A stretch of 64,000 bases of DNA, taken from the sequence record OR757434.1; one strand, 5' to 3'. The stretch comes from Escherichia phage vB-EcoP-XT18. A program made the translations under genes and the position numbers. Shown one piece after another: positions 5,665 through 50,485 of the stretch; the stretch's first letter is position 1, and every line of letters starts with the position of its first letter. Under the pieces are notes generated by a model. It searched no databases. It saw only the letters and a list, made by a program, of their open reading frames with translations, and was not told the DNA's origin.

Positions 5665-6469
5665 GCTCCCTGAAGTAGCTATAGTGGATGCTGACGTTCT
5701 TCGATATGAAGTGGGTGCTCTTACTCAGGAGCATCCCTTCCTTGACACAGGACGTGTTCCAGTTGATTACAATTTCATGATTGAACGACTTCAGTACAAG
5801 ATAGATACTATAATTGCTCGATCAGGTTGCAGTAAGGTTGTGTTCTACTTCAGCGAAGGTGGTAACTTCCGTTTCGATGTTGCTAAGCAGCAAGACTACA
5901 AAGCAAACAGACCTCCCGGAGAAAGACCTTTCCACTGGCAAAACGTTGGTGATTACATTAAAGGTAAGTATGAATACATAGATGTATTTGGGAGAGAGGC
6001 TGATGATGCACTAGCTGAAAGGCAACGTAGGGATAAGAACACTATCATCTGTACTAGAGACAAGGATTTGTTGATAACTCCCGGATGGCACTACCGTTGG
6101 GCTTGTGGAGAAAGACAGAAAGAAGTTCCTCCTCACTATGTATCTGATTTAGTTTCATGGCAAAACTTCTTCTATCAGATGCTGATTGGAGATGGTACAG
6201 ATAATATCCCCGGATGTGGAGAACGTAAAGAAGTTATGTGGGGCGGTAAGCTTCAGCTTCGACGTCAAGGTGTTGGGAAGAAGGCAGCAGCTAATCTATT
6301 GGCTGGTGTTACAGATAAGTGGACCATGTATCATATAGTACGAATGGAATATTATAAGAGATTTGACATTGAAGATGAAGAGAAGATGCTTGAAAATGCT
6401 CGTCTGCTCTTTGTTGGTCAGACTCCGGAAGACCTGTTCGACTGGACATGGTTAAACAAATCTTGGTAA
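5651..6469 (+). CDS. 5'-3' exonuclease / flap endonuclease
   Basis: LIGDGTDNIPG...GKKAAANLL H3TH-type motif typical of Pol I-family 5' nucleases; acidic clusters DAD, EADD. Confidence 0.7.
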   Translation: MEEVKLPEVAIVDADVLRYEVGALTQEHPFLDTGRVPVDYNFMIERLQYKIDTIIARSGCSKVVFYFSEGGNFRFDVAKQQDYKANRPPGERPFHWQNVGDYIKGKYEYIDVFGREADDALAERQRRDKNTIICTRDKDLLITPGWHYRWACGERQKEVPPHYVSDLVSWQNFFYQMLIGDGTDNIPGCGERKEVMWGGKLQLRRQGVGKKAAANLLAGVTDKWTMYHIVRMEYYKRFDIEDEEKMLENARLLFVGQTPEDLFDWTWLNKSW

Positions 6470-6482
6470 TAAGGATATTATA

Positions 6483-6674
6483 ATGGGTAAATTTGATTAT
6501 CGTTCATATGATGAAAACTCCTCCAATCGTGAATCTCGTAAAGAGCAGCGTATTAAATACAGTCATGAATTAGGAAATCGCTATATTAAAGAAAAGCGTG
6601 AAAAAGTATCACATCGAGTAGATAAACGTGTATGGGAAGAAGATGATATGAGTATAGGTTATGGCGAAGGCTGA
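6483..6674 (+). CDS. hypothetical small basic protein
   Basis: ORF with RBS in compact block. Confidence 0.3.
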   Translation: MGKFDYRSYDENSSNRESRKEQRIKYSHELGNRYIKEKREKVSHRVDKRVWEEDDMSIGYGEG

Positions 6675-7062
6675 GAAGACACGCTGTAGTGGAATGTGGA
6701 CTGAAGCTCGTTACAACTCTTTCATCAAGTCAGGGATTCGTTCTCTGACTAGAAAGTGGAAGCCCATGTTCGATGCACTAGCAGACGCCAAGACAGAGCA
6801 GAAGGTTAATCCAAAGACAGGAAGACTGGCAATGCACTTTAAGTGTGCCATGTGTGGTTCTGACCACCCTGTAAAGGATATGGCTATTGACCACATAGAG
6901 CCTATAGTTCCTCTTGACCATGAAGCAACTTGGGATGAAATCATCTCTCGTGCTCTGTGTGAGAAAGAAGGTTTTCAGGTTCTGTGTAAAGACCCTTGTC
7001 ATAAGATTAAAACAAAAGAAGAGAATGATGCAAGAAAACAATTCAAAAAAGGAAATGAGTGA
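6661..7062 (+). CDS. HNH endonuclease
   Basis: CAMCGSDHP ... IDHIEPI ... LCKDPCH metal/HNH motif set. Confidence 0.5.
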   Translation: MAKAEKTRCSGMWTEARYNSFIKSGIRSLTRKWKPMFDALADAKTEQKVNPKTGRLAMHFKCAMCGSDHPVKDMAIDHIEPIVPLDHEATWDEIISRALCEKEGFQVLCKDPCHKIKTKEENDARKQFKKGNE

Positions 7063-7282
7063 TGATCAAAAATCTACGCAACAAGTGCTTCGCTTTCGCT
7101 ATCGCAATTGGAGAGGCGAGGTTGCTGACCGGTCCGTTATTCCACTCCGAACCTCCGTTGCTAGCTCCCGTTTTCATAACGGTGGCAAACCTTGTTGGAT
7201 TATGACAGCGATAGATATAGAGAAAGATGAGATTCGAGAGTTCAAACTCTCTGACATTATTCAGTATTACGATTTAATCTAG
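7055..7282 (+). CDS. hypothetical small protein
   Basis: ATG with AAGGA RBS overlapping stop of upstream HNH gene (ATGAGTGA); downstream portion of track ORF 6914..7282. Confidence 0.3.
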   Translation: MSDDQKSTQQVLRFRYRNWRGEVADRSVIPLRTSVASSRFHNGGKPCWIMTAIDIEKDEIREFKLSDIIQYYDLI

Positions 7283-7719
7283 GAACTGACATGATCACAC
7301 AAGCAGATAAAAATAAACTCTTCGACTTAATCCACGATCTATTAGAAGCTCAGAGCTTTATTGATAATGTCGAGACTTGGGAGATGGAAGCAGCTGGAAA
7401 AGCTTTTGATGAAAGCGAAGAGAAACTTACTAATTTTATAAACACAATCTAGGAGGGTGTATGAATGAAGGAGTTGTTATTCTTGGCAGTAAATCAGATT
7501 GGTTCTACGGAGGCATCTCAGGATGCTTTGAAGATGAACATCCAGACTTCTGAAGAGAATTGGGATGTATGACGAATTTGATGGTTTTTGAAAAGATAAA
7601 ACAGAGCAAAATTGATATGATGAAAAAGTTCAAAGCGGCTTATGATAAAGCTGTTAAAGAAGGAACTATCACTTACAAGAAAATCTAGAAATAAATAAAG
7701 CCCCTTCCAAGGAGGATTA

Positions 7720-23825: not shown

Positions 23826-25898
23826 TCATATCAATCCATAGATGATGTTGTGAAGAACACACCCCCCAACTGCGCCACCTATGTTGAAATTAATTTCAGC
23901 CTTACTGGACCCTGGAGGAACTGAATCAATAACAGCATAGAAACTGAACGAGTTGTTACTAGGTATGTAATATCCAATAGACTCAGAAACTGCATTACCT
24001 GCTGAATCTAGAAACCTAATAGATGCTAGTGTAGTGGTTGTATTCTTAGCCCAAAAACCAAACTGAAAGTATCTTCCGGGATGACACTCACTCACTGATT
24101 GGGTGAAGTTTGCCGAGCTAGTCGTATCTGGGACACCAAAAGAGAATGATGTGTTAAACATAGGAGACGAACTCGGAACATCATTGGGTTGAGAAACTGA
24201 CACTACCCCTGATCCTGTTTGACTAAATGTCCAGTTAGATGTATTTAAGAATTGCCCGGAACCATTACTAAGACTATTAATGTAAGGGCTTACAATAGAT
24301 CCAAGATCCCACCTACTTAAGACAAAACCAGCTCTAGGGTAACATCCGTTAGACACAACTCTCTTACTATCACCGCCGATGAGTTGGCGAGTAGGGAAAC
24401 CAGTGGCTAGAGTATTGTTGCCATACAGAGGTAGAGAGCAGTTTGTCAGAGAAACAAAACCATCCCCATTACTTACTATAGGGACAGAACTAAAACCTAC
24501 AGGGACCAAAATTGTCGAATCTTTTATGCTCAATCTCGAACTACCATTAACAGAAAAAGAAACAAAAGACTGATCCGGTTGATACTCAATGTTCCCATTA
24601 GAAAAAACAACTGTGGCGTTGTCTGTCATTATAATGGTTGGGTCAAAATATCCAGACTTTTTCCCAGCAGGAAGTGAACACGTATCAAAGATGAATTGTC
24701 CATTCTCAAAAGTAAAAGGTCCTCCGTTATCCACGCACCAGCAGTGATTGAACTTTATAACTTCTCCAGAGTTCGCTCTTGATTTAAAAACAACCGTGTC
24801 CGTAAAGCTTCTACTTATTGCACATTTGTCAAAAAGGATCCTATATGAATTATCAAGGAATTCAAGACCAGCTGTTGAGATAAAACCACAATTTTCTATC
24901 CGAACTTCCGACACCTCCCCACTATCAGTCCCTCCAATTACAACCTTTCTGGCACCTAGACCAACAAAGGACACTCCTGATATCTTAGCTGTTGAAGAAA
25001 TCGAATCTCTAAGCCCATAATCTGTGTTTGAATTTATAATCTTCAAGAAATATTGACCTGTTGCTCCAGCCCCTTCCTGAAGCTTACAATTATTATAGCC
25101 TATCAAGGCTCCTTTAGAAACGTCAATAGCTATCTCAGATAATACGGATCCAGAAGTTGGAACTATACAATCGTAACCAGAGGAGTTCACTTTGTTGATA
25201 TAAACAGCAATATCCCCGCTGCCAGTGTAGCCTGCATCAAACACAGAAGCTTCTCCAGAGAATAGCAACCTCTTCCATTTTACAGAAACTCCACTGAAAA
25301 CCACCACCCCATCAGCTGTTTCTGAATTGTCTATTGCTACAAACACACCCCCTCCCATATTAGCCCCTTCGACATAAGATCTTACAAAGACTTTGTCACC
25401 TACAGAAGCTCCCTCTAAGGTCTGAAGTTGTTCAATAGAGGGGAGATCTCCAATAAGATTAAACCCTGTAGGCAGGCCTAGTTCTTGAGAGACCACATTA
25501 GATACCTGACCTAATGCCACTGCTTCGTCACTCTCAACGGCGTTTGGTATACGTATAGGTTGAGAAAAAGTTACCTTATTTGTCATCGAAGTAATATCTG
25601 AGTTAGCCCCACTCTTAGCCGCAACCAGTGCGAGCCTTGCCGTGTCCGGAGAAGAGGCTCCTGTACCACCTTTCGAAATAGGAACAATATTTTCTACAGA
25701 AACATCACCTAATCCTAAATTAGATCTAGCAATAGTAGTATTAATTGCTCCTGTACCACCTTTCGAAATAGGAACAATATTTTCTACAGAAACATCACCT
25801 AATCCTAAATTAGATCTAGCAATAGTAGTATTAATTGCTCCTGTACCACCTTTCGAAATAGGAACAGGCTCCTGTACCACCTTTCGAAATAGGAACAA
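23826..25898 (-). CDS. tail fibre, C-terminal portion (begins inside frameshifted repeat array)
   Basis: N-terminus is 30-aa repeats ISKGGTGAINTTIARSNLGLGDVSVENIVP; TTG start without RBS lies inside the repeat. Confidence 0.55.
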   Translation of the reverse strand: MFLFRKVVQEPVPISKGGTGAINTTIARSNLGLGDVSVENIVPISKGGTGAINTTIARSNLGLGDVSVENIVPISKGGTGASSPDTARLALVAAKSGANSDITSMTNKVTFSQPIRIPNAVESDEAVALGQVSNVVSQELGLPTGFNLIGDLPSIEQLQTLEGASVGDKVFVRSYVEGANMGGGVFVAIDNSETADGVVVFSGVSVKWKRLLFSGEASVFDAGYTGSGDIAVYINKVNSSGYDCIVPTSGSVLSEIAIDVSKGALIGYNNCKLQEGAGATGQYFLKIINSNTDYGLRDSISSTAKISGVSFVGLGARKVVIGGTDSGEVSEVRIENCGFISTAGLEFLDNSYRILFDKCAISRSFTDTVVFKSRANSGEVIKFNHCWCVDNGGPFTFENGQFIFDTCSLPAGKKSGYFDPTIIMTDNATVVFSNGNIEYQPDQSFVSFSVNGSSRLSIKDSTILVPVGFSSVPIVSNGDGFVSLTNCSLPLYGNNTLATGFPTRQLIGGDSKRVVSNGCYPRAGFVLSRWDLGSIVSPYINSLSNGSGQFLNTSNWTFSQTGSGVVSVSQPNDVPSSSPMFNTSFSFGVPDTTSSANFTQSVSECHPGRYFQFGFWAKNTTTTLASIRFLDSAGNAVSESIGYYIPSNNSFSFYAVIDSVPPGSSKAEINFNIGGAVGGCVLHNIIYGLI

Positions 25899-26030
25899 TA
25901 TTTTCTACAGAAACATCACCTAATCCTAAATTAGATCTAGCAATAGTAGTATTAATTGCTCCTGTACCACCTTTCGAAATAGGAACAATATTTTCTACAG
26001 AAACATCACCTAATCCTAAATTAGATCTAG
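25657..26030. repeat. tandem 90-bp (30-codon) direct repeats, about 4 units, with a 31-bp partial duplication
   Basis: Unit gctcctgtaccacctttcgaaataggaacaatattttctacagaaacatcacctaatcctaaattagatctagcaatagtagtattaatt repeated in tandem; extra 31 bp at 25867-25897. Confidence 0.85.
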
Positions 26031-26892
26031 ACCCCTCTGCCGTGGAAGAACCCGTACCGCCTTGGAGCAGAGAGAGAGGTGTGGTTAGACCTGAGAGGGA
26101 GGTAATATCTGAGTTAGAGCCACTCTTAGCTGCACCGGTAATCTGCTCAACAGTATAGTCTCCGGCCTGCGGTGATACAACACCTGTCCGTGAGTTAAAA
26201 CTGGAAACCACCTGTAAAGAAACTTCTCCTGTTTGAGCAACACCTCCATTAAGAGATACTGACCGAACAGAGGGGATTAGATTAGCAATGTCAACCATTG
26301 AGGTTCTATACAGCCCACCAGAGTCCTTATCTACGAAAAAACCATAATCATCCGACACAGGAATACCAACAGGAGTTTCCCCAATGTCTGAAATTGTACC
26401 ATCTGTTCCGTCACGACCCGGCTTCCCTTCTGGAATACCAAAAGAGAATACACCAGTTGTATTGTCATAGGAACCCGTTGCCAAACTACCTGGGGGTAGT
26501 AGCGTCGTCTGTACCGTCATATTAGAAATAATATCAAGCTGTTCTAGGACTTGCTGCGTTGCTTCTCTTGAAAGATCTGTAGCTGCATTTGTATTGTCAA
26601 TAGCCTGTCCCGTAGACTGAATAAGACCTAGAAGAGTCTGATTCTGTGCTTCAAAGTCTTCTTTAAGTTGCTTAATGTCAGACTCTAGCAGGAACCCTTG
26701 AGCGTATAGACGTTCTACCTCAGCAAGAATCTCATCTACTGAAGAATATTTAGTCTGGGATAACAGCGCCCAATATTTAGCATCAGCTGCATACTCAGCC
26801 GCTGATTTATAAGCACCAATTGATCCTTCTGTAGCACCAAATTGGCCTACATTATTCACCGCTGTAGGTGCTGAATTGTTGTAACTGATCAT
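25831..26892 (-). CDS. tail fibre, N-terminal portion (terminates inside repeat array)
   Basis: C-terminus carries the same 30-aa repeats then goes out of frame after the 31-bp duplication. Confidence 0.55.
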   Translation of the reverse strand: MISYNNSAPTAVNNVGQFGATEGSIGAYKSAAEYAADAKYWALLSQTKYSSVDEILAEVERLYAQGFLLESDIKQLKEDFEAQNQTLLGLIQSTGQAIDNTNAATDLSREATQQVLEQLDIISNMTVQTTLLPPGSLATGSYDNTTGVFSFGIPEGKPGRDGTDGTISDIGETPVGIPVSDDYGFFVDKDSGGLYRTSMVDIANLIPSVRSVSLNGGVAQTGEVSLQVVSSFNSRTGVVSPQAGDYTVEQITGAAKSGSNSDITSLSGLTTPLSLLQGGTGSSTAEGSRSNLGLGDVSVENIVPISKGGTGAINTTIARSNLGLGDVSVENIVPISKGGTGACSYFERWYRSN

Positions 26893-26901
26893 ATTATCTC
26901 C

Positions 26902-27678
26902 TTATACACGAGAAGTACGAATACCATAAATATCAGGCAAGCTGCTCTGAAGCCGAGTCATGTTATTCGGAATTGCGATAGGTGAACCTGAGTACTCTTG
27001 TTTCTTATTCTGCTCTACCATTTCATCAAGGATAGCTTTTCCTAATGCTGACCATTTCTGAACTCCGTTGTCATCTTGAACAAACAAGCAAGCATGACGT
27101 AGAGTAAAGTACAGAAGAAGTTCTGGTGCGATAGTAAGAATAGCACTAGTGTCTGTGTCTTCATGGAATTCCGGTGGGTCTGCATAATAACTAAGAATTA
27201 CTGAGTTTTCTGCTGGAATCAAAGGACTTCCATCATCAGGGTAATACGGAGTGTCTGCTTCGATGCTAGGATAGAAAATGAAACGACTACCGAAACGAGC
27301 AAAGTTAACAGGTTGATTGTTCCAATGAGATGGGTTAATTGTTCCATGCTGTCTACGATAGCTAATCTCTTCAGGAGATGTTACTTGGAAGATTGTACCA
27401 TCTTTGGCTCTCATCATCCATTGAGCTTCTAAGTAATCAGGAGGAATGTAAGCTACTCCATCTTTAATATCTAAATACACTTCTTTTTCCAGAGGAGGGA
27501 TACGTAAATTACGATAAATCTCTTTCTCTGCAAAGTTAATAAAGTTTGGAATTTGATTAACAAATTCGTCATCGTCCCTATCTGCCCAGAGGGCCACGGC
27601 CTTCTTTAGCCACCCATAGGTATTGATGGGGTATTGAACGTCAGGCAACATAGGATACCTCCTTCCAGTTTGTGCCAT
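26902..27678 (-). CDS. virion structural protein (possible head-tail adaptor or tail tubular protein)
   Basis: Position between capsid and tail fibre genes; no motif recognised. Confidence 0.3.
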   Translation of the reverse strand: MAQTGRRYPMLPDVQYPINTYGWLKKAVALWADRDDDEFVNQIPNFINFAEKEIYRNLRIPPLEKEVYLDIKDGVAYIPPDYLEAQWMMRAKDGTIFQVTSPEEISYRRQHGTINPSHWNNQPVNFARFGSRFIFYPSIEADTPYYPDDGSPLIPAENSVILSYYADPPEFHEDTDTSAILTIAPELLLYFTLRHACLFVQDDNGVQKWSALGKAILDEMVEQNKKQEYSGSPIAIPNNMTRLQSSLPDIYGIRTSRV

Positions 27679-28781: not shown

Positions 28782-29843
28782 TTACGCCGCCACTGCCTTT
28801 CCCGCAGCAGTGAACAGAACACCGGAAGCATACGGGTTGCGGTGACGCAGACCAACTTCCATCTCAATCATCCATTTTTCGTAAGAACCATCTTTAGCCA
28901 GTTCAGTACGTTTCGGAGCACGCAGAACCATCTGAGTCCAGTCAGCGCTACGGAAGAAGTAAACTGCATCGGTAGGCATCCAACGGTTAACGATGATTTT
29001 GTAGCTCTGGCCCAGCGGGTCAGTGATGCTGTTAACTTCGTAAATGAACTGCTTGGTGTTTTCAAAGATACGCTTACGTGAACCCTGAGTATTTTCTTGC
29101 AGACCAGCGAAGATCTTAGCATGAGCCGGGTTAATCATGATGATATCTGCTTCAGAACCAGCGGTGTACAGTTGCAGAGTCATATCAAAGATATCTGCTT
29201 CATCAAAGCCGATGTTAGTAGCCGGGTTAGAAGCGTTCTGTGCAACTTTAACAGTGATTGCACCAGTATCCGGGTCAGCAGGACCATTCTTGGTCTTGTC
29301 AACAACGCCGCCAGCCAGACCACCGTGAGCACACAGGAACTGGAATGCACCAGTCTTACGAGCTGCATGGGTGTCGTTCTTGCCAATCTGATCTGGGTCA
29401 GCGGCAGAGTTAGTCAGGTATTGGTCAGCCAGAACGTCGGTACGAGCCTGACCAGACAGAAGGATTTTCTCGAGGTCACGCTTGATCTCTTTACCTTTCT
29501 TCTCCAGCTGGTACATCAGTTCGCGACCACGACCGTAGTTAGCGGTGGTGTTAGCAGTGTCAGAAACACGAACAACCTTACGCAGAATCTGAGTAACGTT
29601 AGACTTGATAACAGTCGGTTTCATTTCGCCGTCTTCAGCACGAGAGCCTTCGACGTGTGCGTTATTACCATCAACGCTTGCCAGTGCATCGGTCTGCCAG
29701 CTAAAGATAGTCTGGTTGATAGACTCTTTACCGGTCATGGATACGAACGGGGTATCCTGAGGGGACAGAACAGAAATCCAGTTAGCAAAAGAAAGTTTTT
29801 TACCATTCTGGTCATACGATACAAATAAAGTTGGATTAGCCAT
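28782..29843 (-). CDS. major capsid protein
   Basis: 353 aa with strong RBS TAGGAG directly downstream of scaffold gene and followed by strong terminator; order terminase-portal-scaffold-capsid. Confidence 0.6.
   Translation of the reverse strand: MANPTLFVSYDQNGKKLSFANWISVLSPQDTPFVSMTGKESINQTIFSWQTDALASVDGNNAHVEGSRAEDGEMKPTVIKSNVTQILRKVVRVSDTANTTANYGRGRELMYQLEKKGKEIKRDLEKILLSGQARTDVLADQYLTNSAADPDQIGKNDTHAARKTGAFQFLCAHGGLAGGVVDKTKNGPADPDTGAITVKVAQNASNPATNIGFDEADIFDMTLQLYTAGSEADIIMINPAHAKIFAGLQENTQGSRKRIFENTKQFIYEVNSITDPLGQSYKIIVNRWMPTDAVYFFRSADWTQMVLRAPKRTELAKDGSYEKWMIEMEVGLRHRNPYASGVLFTAAGKAVAA
28797..28803 (-). other. candidate -1 ribosomal frameshift heptamer G_GGA_AAG
   Basis: X_XXY_YYZ pattern 7 codons before capsid stop; possible downstream hairpin aacagt ... 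actgtt. Confidence 0.4.
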
Positions 29844-37344: not shown

Positions 37345-37750
37345 TTCCCCGTGCCTACTCCCCGTAATTATTCCCCCGTGTATACTACCCAATACATTAC
37401 CTACCCGTTTATTTAGTTCCCCTTTACTGAATGGATGAAAGGCTAGCACTGTATAGGCCAACTGATTAGTCTGCTAATAATGCCATTAATGATGGTCACC
37501 ACTCCCCATAGTTTGAGTGTAAATAGTTTCAATAGTGATTGTTATGAGTGCAATAATGATGTATGTATTAATTAAGTGGATGATTGTGTTTCTTTTAATA
37601 ATTTCTTTTAATTACTTTCTTTTTCAGCGTGCATGAGCGTAGCGAATGGTCTTTGATGTTTGAGTTATACAATTATTTAAGTGGTATATTATTACCGCAC
37701 TATCTGGCAATGTTCCCCCGTGGTCTGTCCTGCGGTTGTATGTTCCCCGT
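37345..37750. repeat. iteron-like direct repeats TYCCCCGT (at least 6 copies)
   Basis: tttccccgtg, ctccccgtaa, ttcccccgtg, tacccgttt, gttcccccgtg, gttccccgtcc; three copies spaced 13-14 bp. Confidence 0.55.
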
Positions 37751-50299: not shown

Positions 50300-50485
50300 A
50301 TGAAAGTTAACGAGTTAAATAGAACTACCAAGACTGTGAAACTCCATACTCTGAAGAAGGGTGATACATTCCGTTTAGAGGAGAATGGACCAATCCACAT
50401 GGTCTGCACTGCGGCATCTACTAATTGGGTGGAAGTTGCACGAGATCGAGTAGTGTGTGTGTCAGGCTGGAAGATGGTAATCTGA
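50300..50485 (+). CDS. small protein, GDVF-motif paralogue family
   Basis: LKKGDTFRLEENG. Confidence 0.35.
   Translation: MKVNELNRTTKTVKLHTLKKGDTFRLEENGPIHMVCTAASTNWVEVARDRVVCVSGWKMVI

Follow-up and report, generated by a model that had tools for sequence, protein, structure and literature searches.

The Fibre Locus

The window, by which the whole analysed stretch of 64,000 nucleotides (64 kb) from Escherichia phage vB-EcoP-XT18 (OR757434.1) is meant, is that of a Kuravirus, that is, of an SU10/phiEco32-like coliphage, and is 99.6–99.7% identical to vB-EcoP-XT32 (OR757435) and vB-EcoP-XT73 (OR757436). The features considered here are the following:

23826..26892, minus strand: whole locus, one long-tail-fibre/tailspike gene, interrupted; 3067 nt (3036 + 31); a single CDS in XT32 and XT73
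25831..26892, minus strand: upstream ORF of 353 aa, comprising anchor, lead-in and 1.8 repeats and closing with 11 out-of-frame codons and TAA
23826..25898, minus strand: downstream ORF, 690 aa, with a nominal TTG start; a half-unit in the wrong frame makes up its first 11 codons, and it has no SD
26206..26892, minus strand: N-terminal virion-anchor domain (aa 1–229), homologous to gp12, the proximal protein of the SU10 long tail fibre
26029..26133, minus strand: diverged lead-in copy of the shaft motif (AAKSGSNSDITSLSGLTTPLSLLQGGTGSSTAEGS), aligning to SU10 gp12 residues 463–545
25657..26030, minus strand: array of perfect 90-bp repeats coding for INTTIARSNLGLGDVSVENIVPISKGGTGA, made up of three full units, one partial unit of 73 nt and an insert of 31 nt
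25867..25897 (equivalently 25837–25867), minus strand: the 31-nt insert, a copy of the array-terminal half-unit and the next base
25584..25655, minus strand: post-array linker SSPDTARLALVAAKSGANSDITSM, between the fibre shaft and the tailspike module
23829..25517, minus strand: CBA120 TSP4-like tailspike module, 563 aa (5w6h_A, E 1.1e-245)
26902–27678, directly upstream of the fibre gene: adaptor-position ORF, 258 aa (phrog_2941), in the place of SU10 gp11 (adaptor)

A preliminary description of this DNA had reported the two ORFs, 25831..26892 and 23826..25898, the latter starting with TTG, and had taken them for one gene of about 1020 aa. Both ORFs exist, and they are one gene: the corresponding fibre ORF is uninterrupted in XT32 (WPK41947.1, 3216 nt/1071 aa, five full 90-bp units) as well as in XT73 (WPK42100.1, 3036 nt/1011 aa, three full 90-bp units), so that the suggested comparison of copy number among relatives finds the frame kept in either case. 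Gene, position and the 90-bp unit (at 100% identity) are the same in the two orthologues and in the window; the orthologues differ in being single ORFs, whereas the window has three full units and, out of register, an insert of 31 nt. In both records the annotation is just “hypothetical protein”, and a literature search yielded no paper on the XT phages or on how they were sequenced.

The upstream ORF begins at an ATG with a good SD (−9.3 kcal/mol) and ends in ...GGTGACSYFERWYRSN followed by the stop, the out-of-frame codons at 25834–25866 reading CSYFERWYRSN. Signals for independent translation of the downstream ORF are absent, as had been supposed for its start: the anti-SD duplex energy is about 0 kcal/mol at TTG 25898 and also at GTG 25880 (−7 to −13 at five of six neighbouring gene starts), and none of the in-frame ATG, GTG or TTG codons among its first 135 has an SD, for which reason independent translation of the 690-aa ORF was rejected. 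Within the repeat, 68 nt are shared by both ORFs.

Modules of the Fibre Protein

Domains were placed by comparison with PDB sequences and PHROGs; Pfam gave one sub-threshold chance hit only on the two ORFs. By these alignments, the fibre protein is a chimera of an SU10-gp12-type anchor, which docks on the tail adaptor, a shaft of perfect 30-aa repeats and a CBA120-TSP4-type tailspike. We take it for the receptor-binding protein of the phage's long tail fibre. The anchor matches residues 1–226 of 7z47_D (E 9.6e-96 with the whole 1011-aa query) and phrog_10305 (1.7e-85). With SU10 gp12 (PDB 7Z47 chain D; PMC9509320) the window protein shares these N-terminal ~226 aa, the gene order after the adaptor gene and, at gp12 residues 463–545, the shaft motif SGANSDITSLSGLTTPLS..GGTGA....ARSNLGLG; the repeat, said earlier to be of long-tail-fibre type, is thus indeed native to the SU10 long fibre. 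The late-operon order (capsid, adaptor, fibre, lysis genes, short fibre, nozzle) matches that of SU10 as well. SU10 differs in having two diverged copies of the motif, a gp12 of 786 aa and, as a protein of its own, the distal gp13; here the motif has been amplified into perfect repeats and a fused tailspike replaces the distal part. A gp13-like gene is not found in the window, XT32 or XT73, all of which have the fused TSP4-like tailspike instead. In a large protein search the best relative was 56% identical and none was close, the shaft motif being common among fibre proteins whose C-terminal domains vary.

The designation as a fibre gene therefore holds for the long-fibre anchor and the shaft; the C-terminal 563 aa are not a fibre tip but an O78-specific type of tailspike. 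Query residues 449–1011 align with residues 139–697 of the CBA120 TSP4 chain (ORF213, PDB 5W6H, 5w6h_A) end to end at about 65% identity, the module also matches phrog_4217 (3e-210), and tblastn returned matches of 62–68% to tailspikes from many O78 phages of several morphotypes; the tailspike matches in other phages start at about residues 420–495. The N-terminal baseplate-anchor and assembly domains of TSP4 are absent, the Kuravirus fibre anchor and the repeats taking their place, and the depolymerase remains putative. The O78 O-antigen is what TSP4 itself cuts (PMC8825819), the host on which XT32 and XT73 were isolated is O78, and many of the matching phages have O78 hosts too; from homology and these hosts together, the C-terminal module would bind and cut the O-antigen of E. 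coli O78.

The Tandem Array and Its Insert

The 90-bp array, which begins at 25657 and whose units are 100% identical, is the sole tandem array scoring at least 60 in the 64-kb window (TRF); with such identity chance is no concern. The preliminary description had counted four copies at 25657–26047. The array itself stands; it comprises, however, three full units and a 73-nt partial one and ends at 26030, positions 26031–26047 being part of the diverged GGTG lead-in motif outside the array proper. On the plus strand its layout is a unit (25657–25746), a second unit (25747–25836), a half-unit (25837–25866), a G (25867), a third unit (25868–25957) and the partial unit (25958–26030), identity ending at 26031; the total of 374 nt equals 3 × 90 + 73 + 31. 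In addition to the 90-bp period, TRF reports a 31-bp period at 25837–25897 and a 211-nt period of 99% identity over 25651–26030.

The extra 31 bp, seen previously as a 30-bp partial duplicate plus one G, are present, but the G is not a stray base: the coding strand has GTTCCTATTTCGAAAGGTGGTACAGGAGCC+T as the insert, an exact match to the last half-unit of the array (the only one ending GCC, the others ending GCA) and then to the next base, T. All 31 nt are copied. The insert shifts the downstream frame to +1. The insert-bearing sequence in the window is GGTACAGGAGCCTGTTCCTATTTCG, with the junction 5'-GGTGGTACAGGAGCCTGTTCCTATTTCG-3'; at GGAACA|G|GCTCC the join is out of register, its base coming from the context of the array's flank, and because the 31-mer copies the terminal half-unit and the next base, this junction is unlike one made by homologous slippage.

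Beyond the array, the DNA of the gene matches that of XT32 at 100%, and the whole can be written as an XT32 prefix of 1025 nt, one C and an XT32 suffix of 2041 nt. In-silico deletion of 25867–25897 restores a protein of 1011 aa which is, residue for residue, that of XT73 and equals that of XT32 minus two units. Among the window genes of at least 120 aa, none besides the fibre gene is frameshift-truncated relative to both XT32 and XT73, and most other indels relative to these phages fall in divergent mosaic patches rather than being scattered about as homopolymer errors. A look-up of the exact 353-aa product gave no match; the insert junction has no match in IMG/VR, nor has the 90-bp repeat unit in IMG/VR, JGI metagenomes or GTDB genomes. 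Since junction and unit are absent from the public collections scanned, the allele has no independent support.

Origin of the Split

Probably the split reflects either an ordinary assembly error or a very recent knockout, and no new mechanism. With some confidence, though far from certainty, we infer that it is an artefact of assembly or consensus. The phage DNA would then most likely be without the insert, which would have arisen as a mis-join or consensus error during assembly across the 374-nt perfect tandem array, for instance by the joining of one read or contig, fixed at the downstream edge of the array, to another that ended inside it. The lesion is confined to a perfect array at least as long as a typical short read, and the rest of the genome is clean. 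Homologous slippage in a 90-bp array yields gains or losses of whole multiples of 90 nt, as between XT32 and XT73, whereas mis-overlapped reads or contigs give joins that are out of register, which argues for an artefact; so does the lack of secondary decay in the gene, unlike what a long-dead gene would show. Further, the broken part is the O78 tailspike, the relatives' host is O78, and the long fibres of SU10, made from two proteins (gp12 and gp13), are the first to contact the cell (PMC9509320); a null allele forming the majority would therefore be strongly counter-selected. Several points speak against an artefact: a pure de Bruijn graph cannot create junction k-mers without read support, base quality outside the array looks good, and on a rough or non-O78 host the loss of the tailspike could be neutral. 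Moreover, the 30 + 1 nt duplication does not fit a simple k-mer-overlap concatenation, from which two exact 31-mers would be expected where only 30 nt are exact; concatenation of contigs overlapping at k = 31 was for this reason not adopted as the exact cause, the duplicate being 30 exact nt and a flank-type base. The difference in copy number between XT32 and XT73 means that either the array is truly unstable, or it is itself hard to assemble.

It is possible, if rather doubtful, that the insert is instead a genuine and very recent loss-of-function mutation, or a variant carried by a sizeable subpopulation; the window sequence as given does contain it. It could have originated in a microhomology-mediated event, by a route in which a nascent plus strand ending in ...AGGAACA re-primes on ...GAGAAGA at the array edge and thereby duplicates 211 nt of a shorter array, the outcome of which would be a 31-nt insertion into an XT73-type array. 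That all 31 nt are templated, the 211-nt period, and the junction contexts GAAGA|G and GAACA|G, agreeing at four of the last five nt, are in keeping with this, as are the good base quality elsewhere and the differing copy numbers of the sister phages; the microhomology is, however, imperfect at the penultimate base. A classical precedent would be the lambda PaPa laboratory strain, in which the side-tail-fibre gene stf is, as Hendrix and Duda are said to have found in 1992, frameshifted into two ORFs. The likeness lies in a fibre gene split in one lineage and present as a single ORF in relatives; yet in lambda PaPa the lesion is experimentally established and the fibre a dispensable accessory, whereas here the lesion is putative and the fibre probably the primary receptor-binding protein. 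A genuine mutation would delete the receptor-binding domain matching the serotype of the relatives' host, in a gene otherwise without decay, and the allele was found neither by the look-up of the 353-aa product nor in the IMG/VR junction scan.

That the split is functional, by recoding or as two working proteins, is very improbable even with both taken jointly, and the preliminary description, which had listed phase variation and recoding among the causes, is not followed on this point. A real split could be bypassed by +1 (or −2) recoding within the 11-codon overlap, so that some full-length fibre is made; this we regard as highly improbable, and we hold the same of a real insert from which some full-length fibre arises by a +1 shift, or which serves a deliberate mix of stub and full fibre. 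The shift required is +1, and the overlap (TGT TCC TAT TTC GAA AGG TGG TAC AGG AGC AAT TAA), with its two rare AGG codons, loosely resembles hungry-codon and prfB-type +1 sites; the candidates are GAA_AGG, with a rare AGG in the A site, and AAT_TAA, preceded by an SD-like GGAG, which is separated by 1 nt from the last sense codon and the stop. Inspected by eye, though, the 36-nt stretch shows no +1/−2 slip site and no good tRNA re-pairing: re-pairing of the P-site tRNA at +1 would be poor (GAA to AAA, AAU to AUU), and the SD spacing is 1 nt (3 nt in prfB). In the product, 10–11 foreign residues would fall within a trimeric shaft, and the two-ORF arrangement is not conserved, XT32 and XT73 having one ORF. 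How a site of the recoding type may look can be seen in the same genome: the Kuravirus capsid gene gives rise to an extended isoform by −1 programmed frameshifting, and a two-isoform capsid is found in this phage group (PMC9965538). There, too, the frame changes between two overlapping ORFs, but the end of the capsid gene (window 28797–28803) has the canonical slippery heptamer G_GGA_AAG, to which nothing at the fibre junction, devoid of a slip site and unique to the window's record, is comparable.

It is even less probable that the two ORFs make a functional fibre of two proteins, like gp12 and gp13 of SU10, or that the split marks an on/off phase-variable contingency locus. The long fibre of SU10 does consist of two proteins, and array copy number does vary among the relatives; on the other hand, the downstream ORF lacks an SD and has just TTG and GTG starts inside a misread half-unit, the 68-nt overlap falls within the repeat, and the gene is fused in the relatives. 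Phase variation was rejected because the 90-nt unit is divisible by 3, so that copy-number slippage is unable to switch the frame; alleles of three and of five units are both in frame.

Implications

For annotation, the two ORFs belong together in one (pseudo)gene, and the array region of the record should be checked again. The three or five perfect 90-bp units of the sister phages hint, as a minor point, at rapid changes in fibre length within this lineage. Were recoding to operate after all, the repeat would embed a switch tuning the number of O78 tailspikes per virion. The “hypothetical protein” of XT32 and XT73 can now be named as a Kuravirus anchor of the long fibre to which an O78-specific tailspike is fused. 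Should the lesion be real, virions would carry a 353-aa fibre stub and no O78 tailspike; such an isolate would be without its serotype-specific receptor-binding domain, which would matter for use against avian pathogenic O78 E. coli.

Fibre gene and repeat array

The window represents a Kuravirus, an SU10/phiEco32-like short-tailed coliphage, and is 99.6–99.7% identical to Escherichia phage vB-EcoP-XT32 (XT32) and, depending on the block, 92.6–99.8% identical to vB-EcoP-XT73 (XT73), both of which come from chicken-farm sewage, with an E. coli O78 strain as isolation host. In both sister phages the fibre locus is a single CDS, of 3216 nt/1071 aa in XT32 (L001, 4127–7342) and 3036 nt/1011 aa in XT73 (L002, 4127–7162), annotated in GenBank only as "hypothetical protein". 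The locus in the window measures 3067 nt (3036 + 31), and its coding strand consists of 1025 nt from the start of the XT32 gene, one C, and the final 2041 nt of that gene. Removal of 25867–25897 gives an open frame of 1011 aa, the product of which is exactly the XT73 protein, or the XT32 protein less two units; the preliminary description was right in treating the two ORFs as one fibre gene of about 1020 aa.

The array (25657–26030; direct reading and TRF) consists, as first described, of 90-bp units, with copies 100% identical. Direct reading gives, in plus-strand layout:

25657–25746: full unit
25747–25836: full unit
25837–25866: first 30 nt of the unit
25867: lone G
25868–25957: full unit
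25958–26030: 73-nt partial unit

Each unit translates on the coding (minus) strand to INTTIARSNLGLGDVSVENIVPISKGGTGA, and no other tandem array in the 64-kb window scores at least 60 in TRF. Read on the coding strand, the insert is GTTCCTATTTCGAAAGGTGGTACAGGAGCC followed by T, an exact copy of the array's last half-unit, the sole one with a GCC end (the others have GCA), plus its next base; it is because of this copying that TRF also calls a 211-nt period (99% identity, 25651–26030). The 31 extra bp were described correctly, with one correction: the extra G is not untemplated.

Comparing copy number with related phages, as had been suggested, gives five full units in XT32, three in XT73 and three in the window; outside the array, the fibre gene DNA of the window is that of XT32. 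The XT32 and XT73 genes are otherwise near-identical, yet contain five versus three full perfect 90-bp units, which reflects either quick fibre-length change in the lineage or an assembly-uncertain copy number in both records. A plus-strand ORF (25642–25923, 93 aa) is the antisense reading of the array and lengthens with copy number (161 aa in XT73, 221 aa in XT32); it is therefore not a gene.

Architecture of the fibre protein

When PDB sequences and PHROGs were searched with the intact XT73 protein, residues 1–229 resembled the N-terminus of SU10 gp12, the proximal protein of the long tail fibre (7z47_D; whole-query E-value 9.6e-96), and residues 449–1011 matched CBA120 tailspike protein 4 (TSP4) end to end (5w6h_A residues 139–697, E 1.1e-245). 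Residues 463–545 of SU10 gp12 hold two diverged copies of the repeat motif (...SGANSDITSLSGLTTPLSISQGGTGAKDAASARSNLGLGSVSTLDNVPIASGGTGAGDAAGARFNLGLG...), which is native to the Kuravirus fibre; weaker matches occur in the solved phage fibres 8vbx_R and 9zd7_AE, and the motif recurs in numerous fibre proteins from metagenomes, whose C-terminal domains vary. The gp12, motif and TSP4 matches together identify the protein as a chimera in three parts, a fibre anchor of Kuravirus type, a shaft of amplified repeats and a predicted O78 tailspike; the break interrupts the shaft, after the anchor and before the predicted receptor-binding enzyme. The long fibres of SU10 are docked on the adaptor and are the first to contact the cell (PMC9509320); TSP4 cleaves the O78 O-antigen (PMC8825819). 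By tblastn, many O78 coliphages of differing morphotypes have the C-terminal module in their tailspikes, at 62–68% identity.

Expression of the split gene

Both ORFs are present as previously delimited:

25831..26892, minus strand: upstream ORF, 353 aa; enters the array and stops 11 codons past the extra piece (...GGTGA CSYFERWYRSN*)
23826..25898, minus strand: downstream ORF, 690 aa; nominal TTG start within the array

As 31 = 30 + 1, the downstream ORF lies in the +1 frame with respect to the upstream ORF. Pairing with the anti-SD is about nil at TTG 25898 (−0.2 kcal/mol), which bears out the earlier remark that this start lacks an RBS, and at GTG 25880 (+1.0 kcal/mol), while five of six neighbouring gene starts reach −7.3 to −12.9 kcal/mol, the exception being the nominal ATG of a 258-aa ORF in the adaptor position; no SD was found at the next in-frame ATG (25586) either. 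Independent translation of the 690-aa ORF is therefore not credible.

A +1 or −2 ribosomal shift bypassing the split would have to occur in the overlap TGT TCC TAT TTC GAA AGG TGG TAC AGG AGC AAT TAA. Such recoding is very improbable: good re-pairing of the P-site tRNA at +1 is possible at none of these codons, AAT_TAA stands 1 nt from the SD-like GGAG (the optimal spacing in prfB is 3 nt), the junction has nothing like the G_GGA_AAG slippery site of the capsid gene, and relatives do not share the two-ORF state. To a functional split or phase switch hardly any credence can be given. Phase variation by copy-number slippage is excluded because the 90-nt unit is divisible by 3 and cannot switch frame; the natural three- and five-unit variants are both in frame.

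Other loci

Further features concern these genes:

28782–29843, minus strand: capsid gene (SU10_MCP), ending ...ACT GCT GCG GGA AAG GCA GTG GCG GCG TAA
27641–28153, minus strand: HNH endonuclease gene (PF13392, 4.4e-13), between the capsid-extension ORF and the adaptor gene
62309–63838, plus strand: primase/helicase region; an ORF ends after 312 aa; a 166-aa ORF comes next

The capsid gene end (28782–28810) carries the canonical −1 heptamer G_GGA_AAG at about 28797–28803 on the minus strand, from which the −1 frame stays open through a 147-aa Ig-like ORF (GKGSGGVTVDTITVSPSS...) down to 28255. Two capsid isoforms, the extended one arising through ribosomal slippage, have been described in Kuraviruses (PMC9965538), and the heptamer and open frame fit such an extended isoform. 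The HNH gene, whose sequence overlaps the adaptor ORF at its start, occurs in the window and XT32 but not in XT73, and hence looks like a mobile homing-endonuclease insertion. The adaptor-position ORF (26902–27678, minus strand, 258 aa) probably starts near 27651, since ATG 27678 has no SD (−0.7 kcal/mol) and the gene is annotated 27 nt shorter in XT32. The primase/helicase layout recurs in XT73, annotated there "HNH homing endonuclease # Phage intron", and is uninterrupted in XT32 (596 aa); a polymorphic intron or homing endonuclease within an essential replication gene may account for the difference. A (GT)n run at 50453–50462 has one GT more than in XT32 and XT73. Two short, heavily rearranged patches (6452–7575 and 37447–37640, the latter AT-rich with TTTCTTTTAAT-like motifs) show dense substitutions and many small indels versus both relatives within surroundings that are >99.5% identical, and may represent mosaic exchange or variable intergenic region.

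Origin of the insert

The insert is rather more probably an assembly artefact than not, with considerable room for doubt. In that case a read or contig fixed at the edge of the array would have been joined to another ending inside it, and such a mis-join would yield what is seen, an out-of-register junction bearing a flank-context base; homologous slippage gives ±90n. The lesion occupies the single hard-to-assemble locus of the window, in a gene identical in DNA to that of XT32 apart from the array. Also in favour of an artefact, the fibre gene is the only one of at least 120 aa frameshifted relative to XT32/XT73, the sole other difference in length being the homing-endonuclease insertion in the primase/helicase gene, common to XT73. 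The remaining indels are not scattered errors; most lie in divergent mosaic patches. Moreover, the loss affects the serotype-specific tailspike, a part required on the O78 host of the relatives. A genuine recent null allele, or a subpopulation carrying one, is an unlikely yet serious candidate: novel junction k-mers require read support in a de Bruijn assembler, the 30 + 1 pattern misfits simple k-overlap concatenation, and microhomology-mediated duplication in vivo (GAACA versus GAAGA, 4/5 nt) could produce the insert. It would resemble the fibre loss known in laboratory phages, for example stf in lambda PaPa.

Exchange of tailspike modules among phage families is well known, as are fibre genes split by frameshift in single isolates or assemblies, and nothing at the fibre locus falls outside known kinds. 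What the analysis usefully yields is a mended annotation, in which a single gene has a function that can be named, and an array flagged for re-examination.
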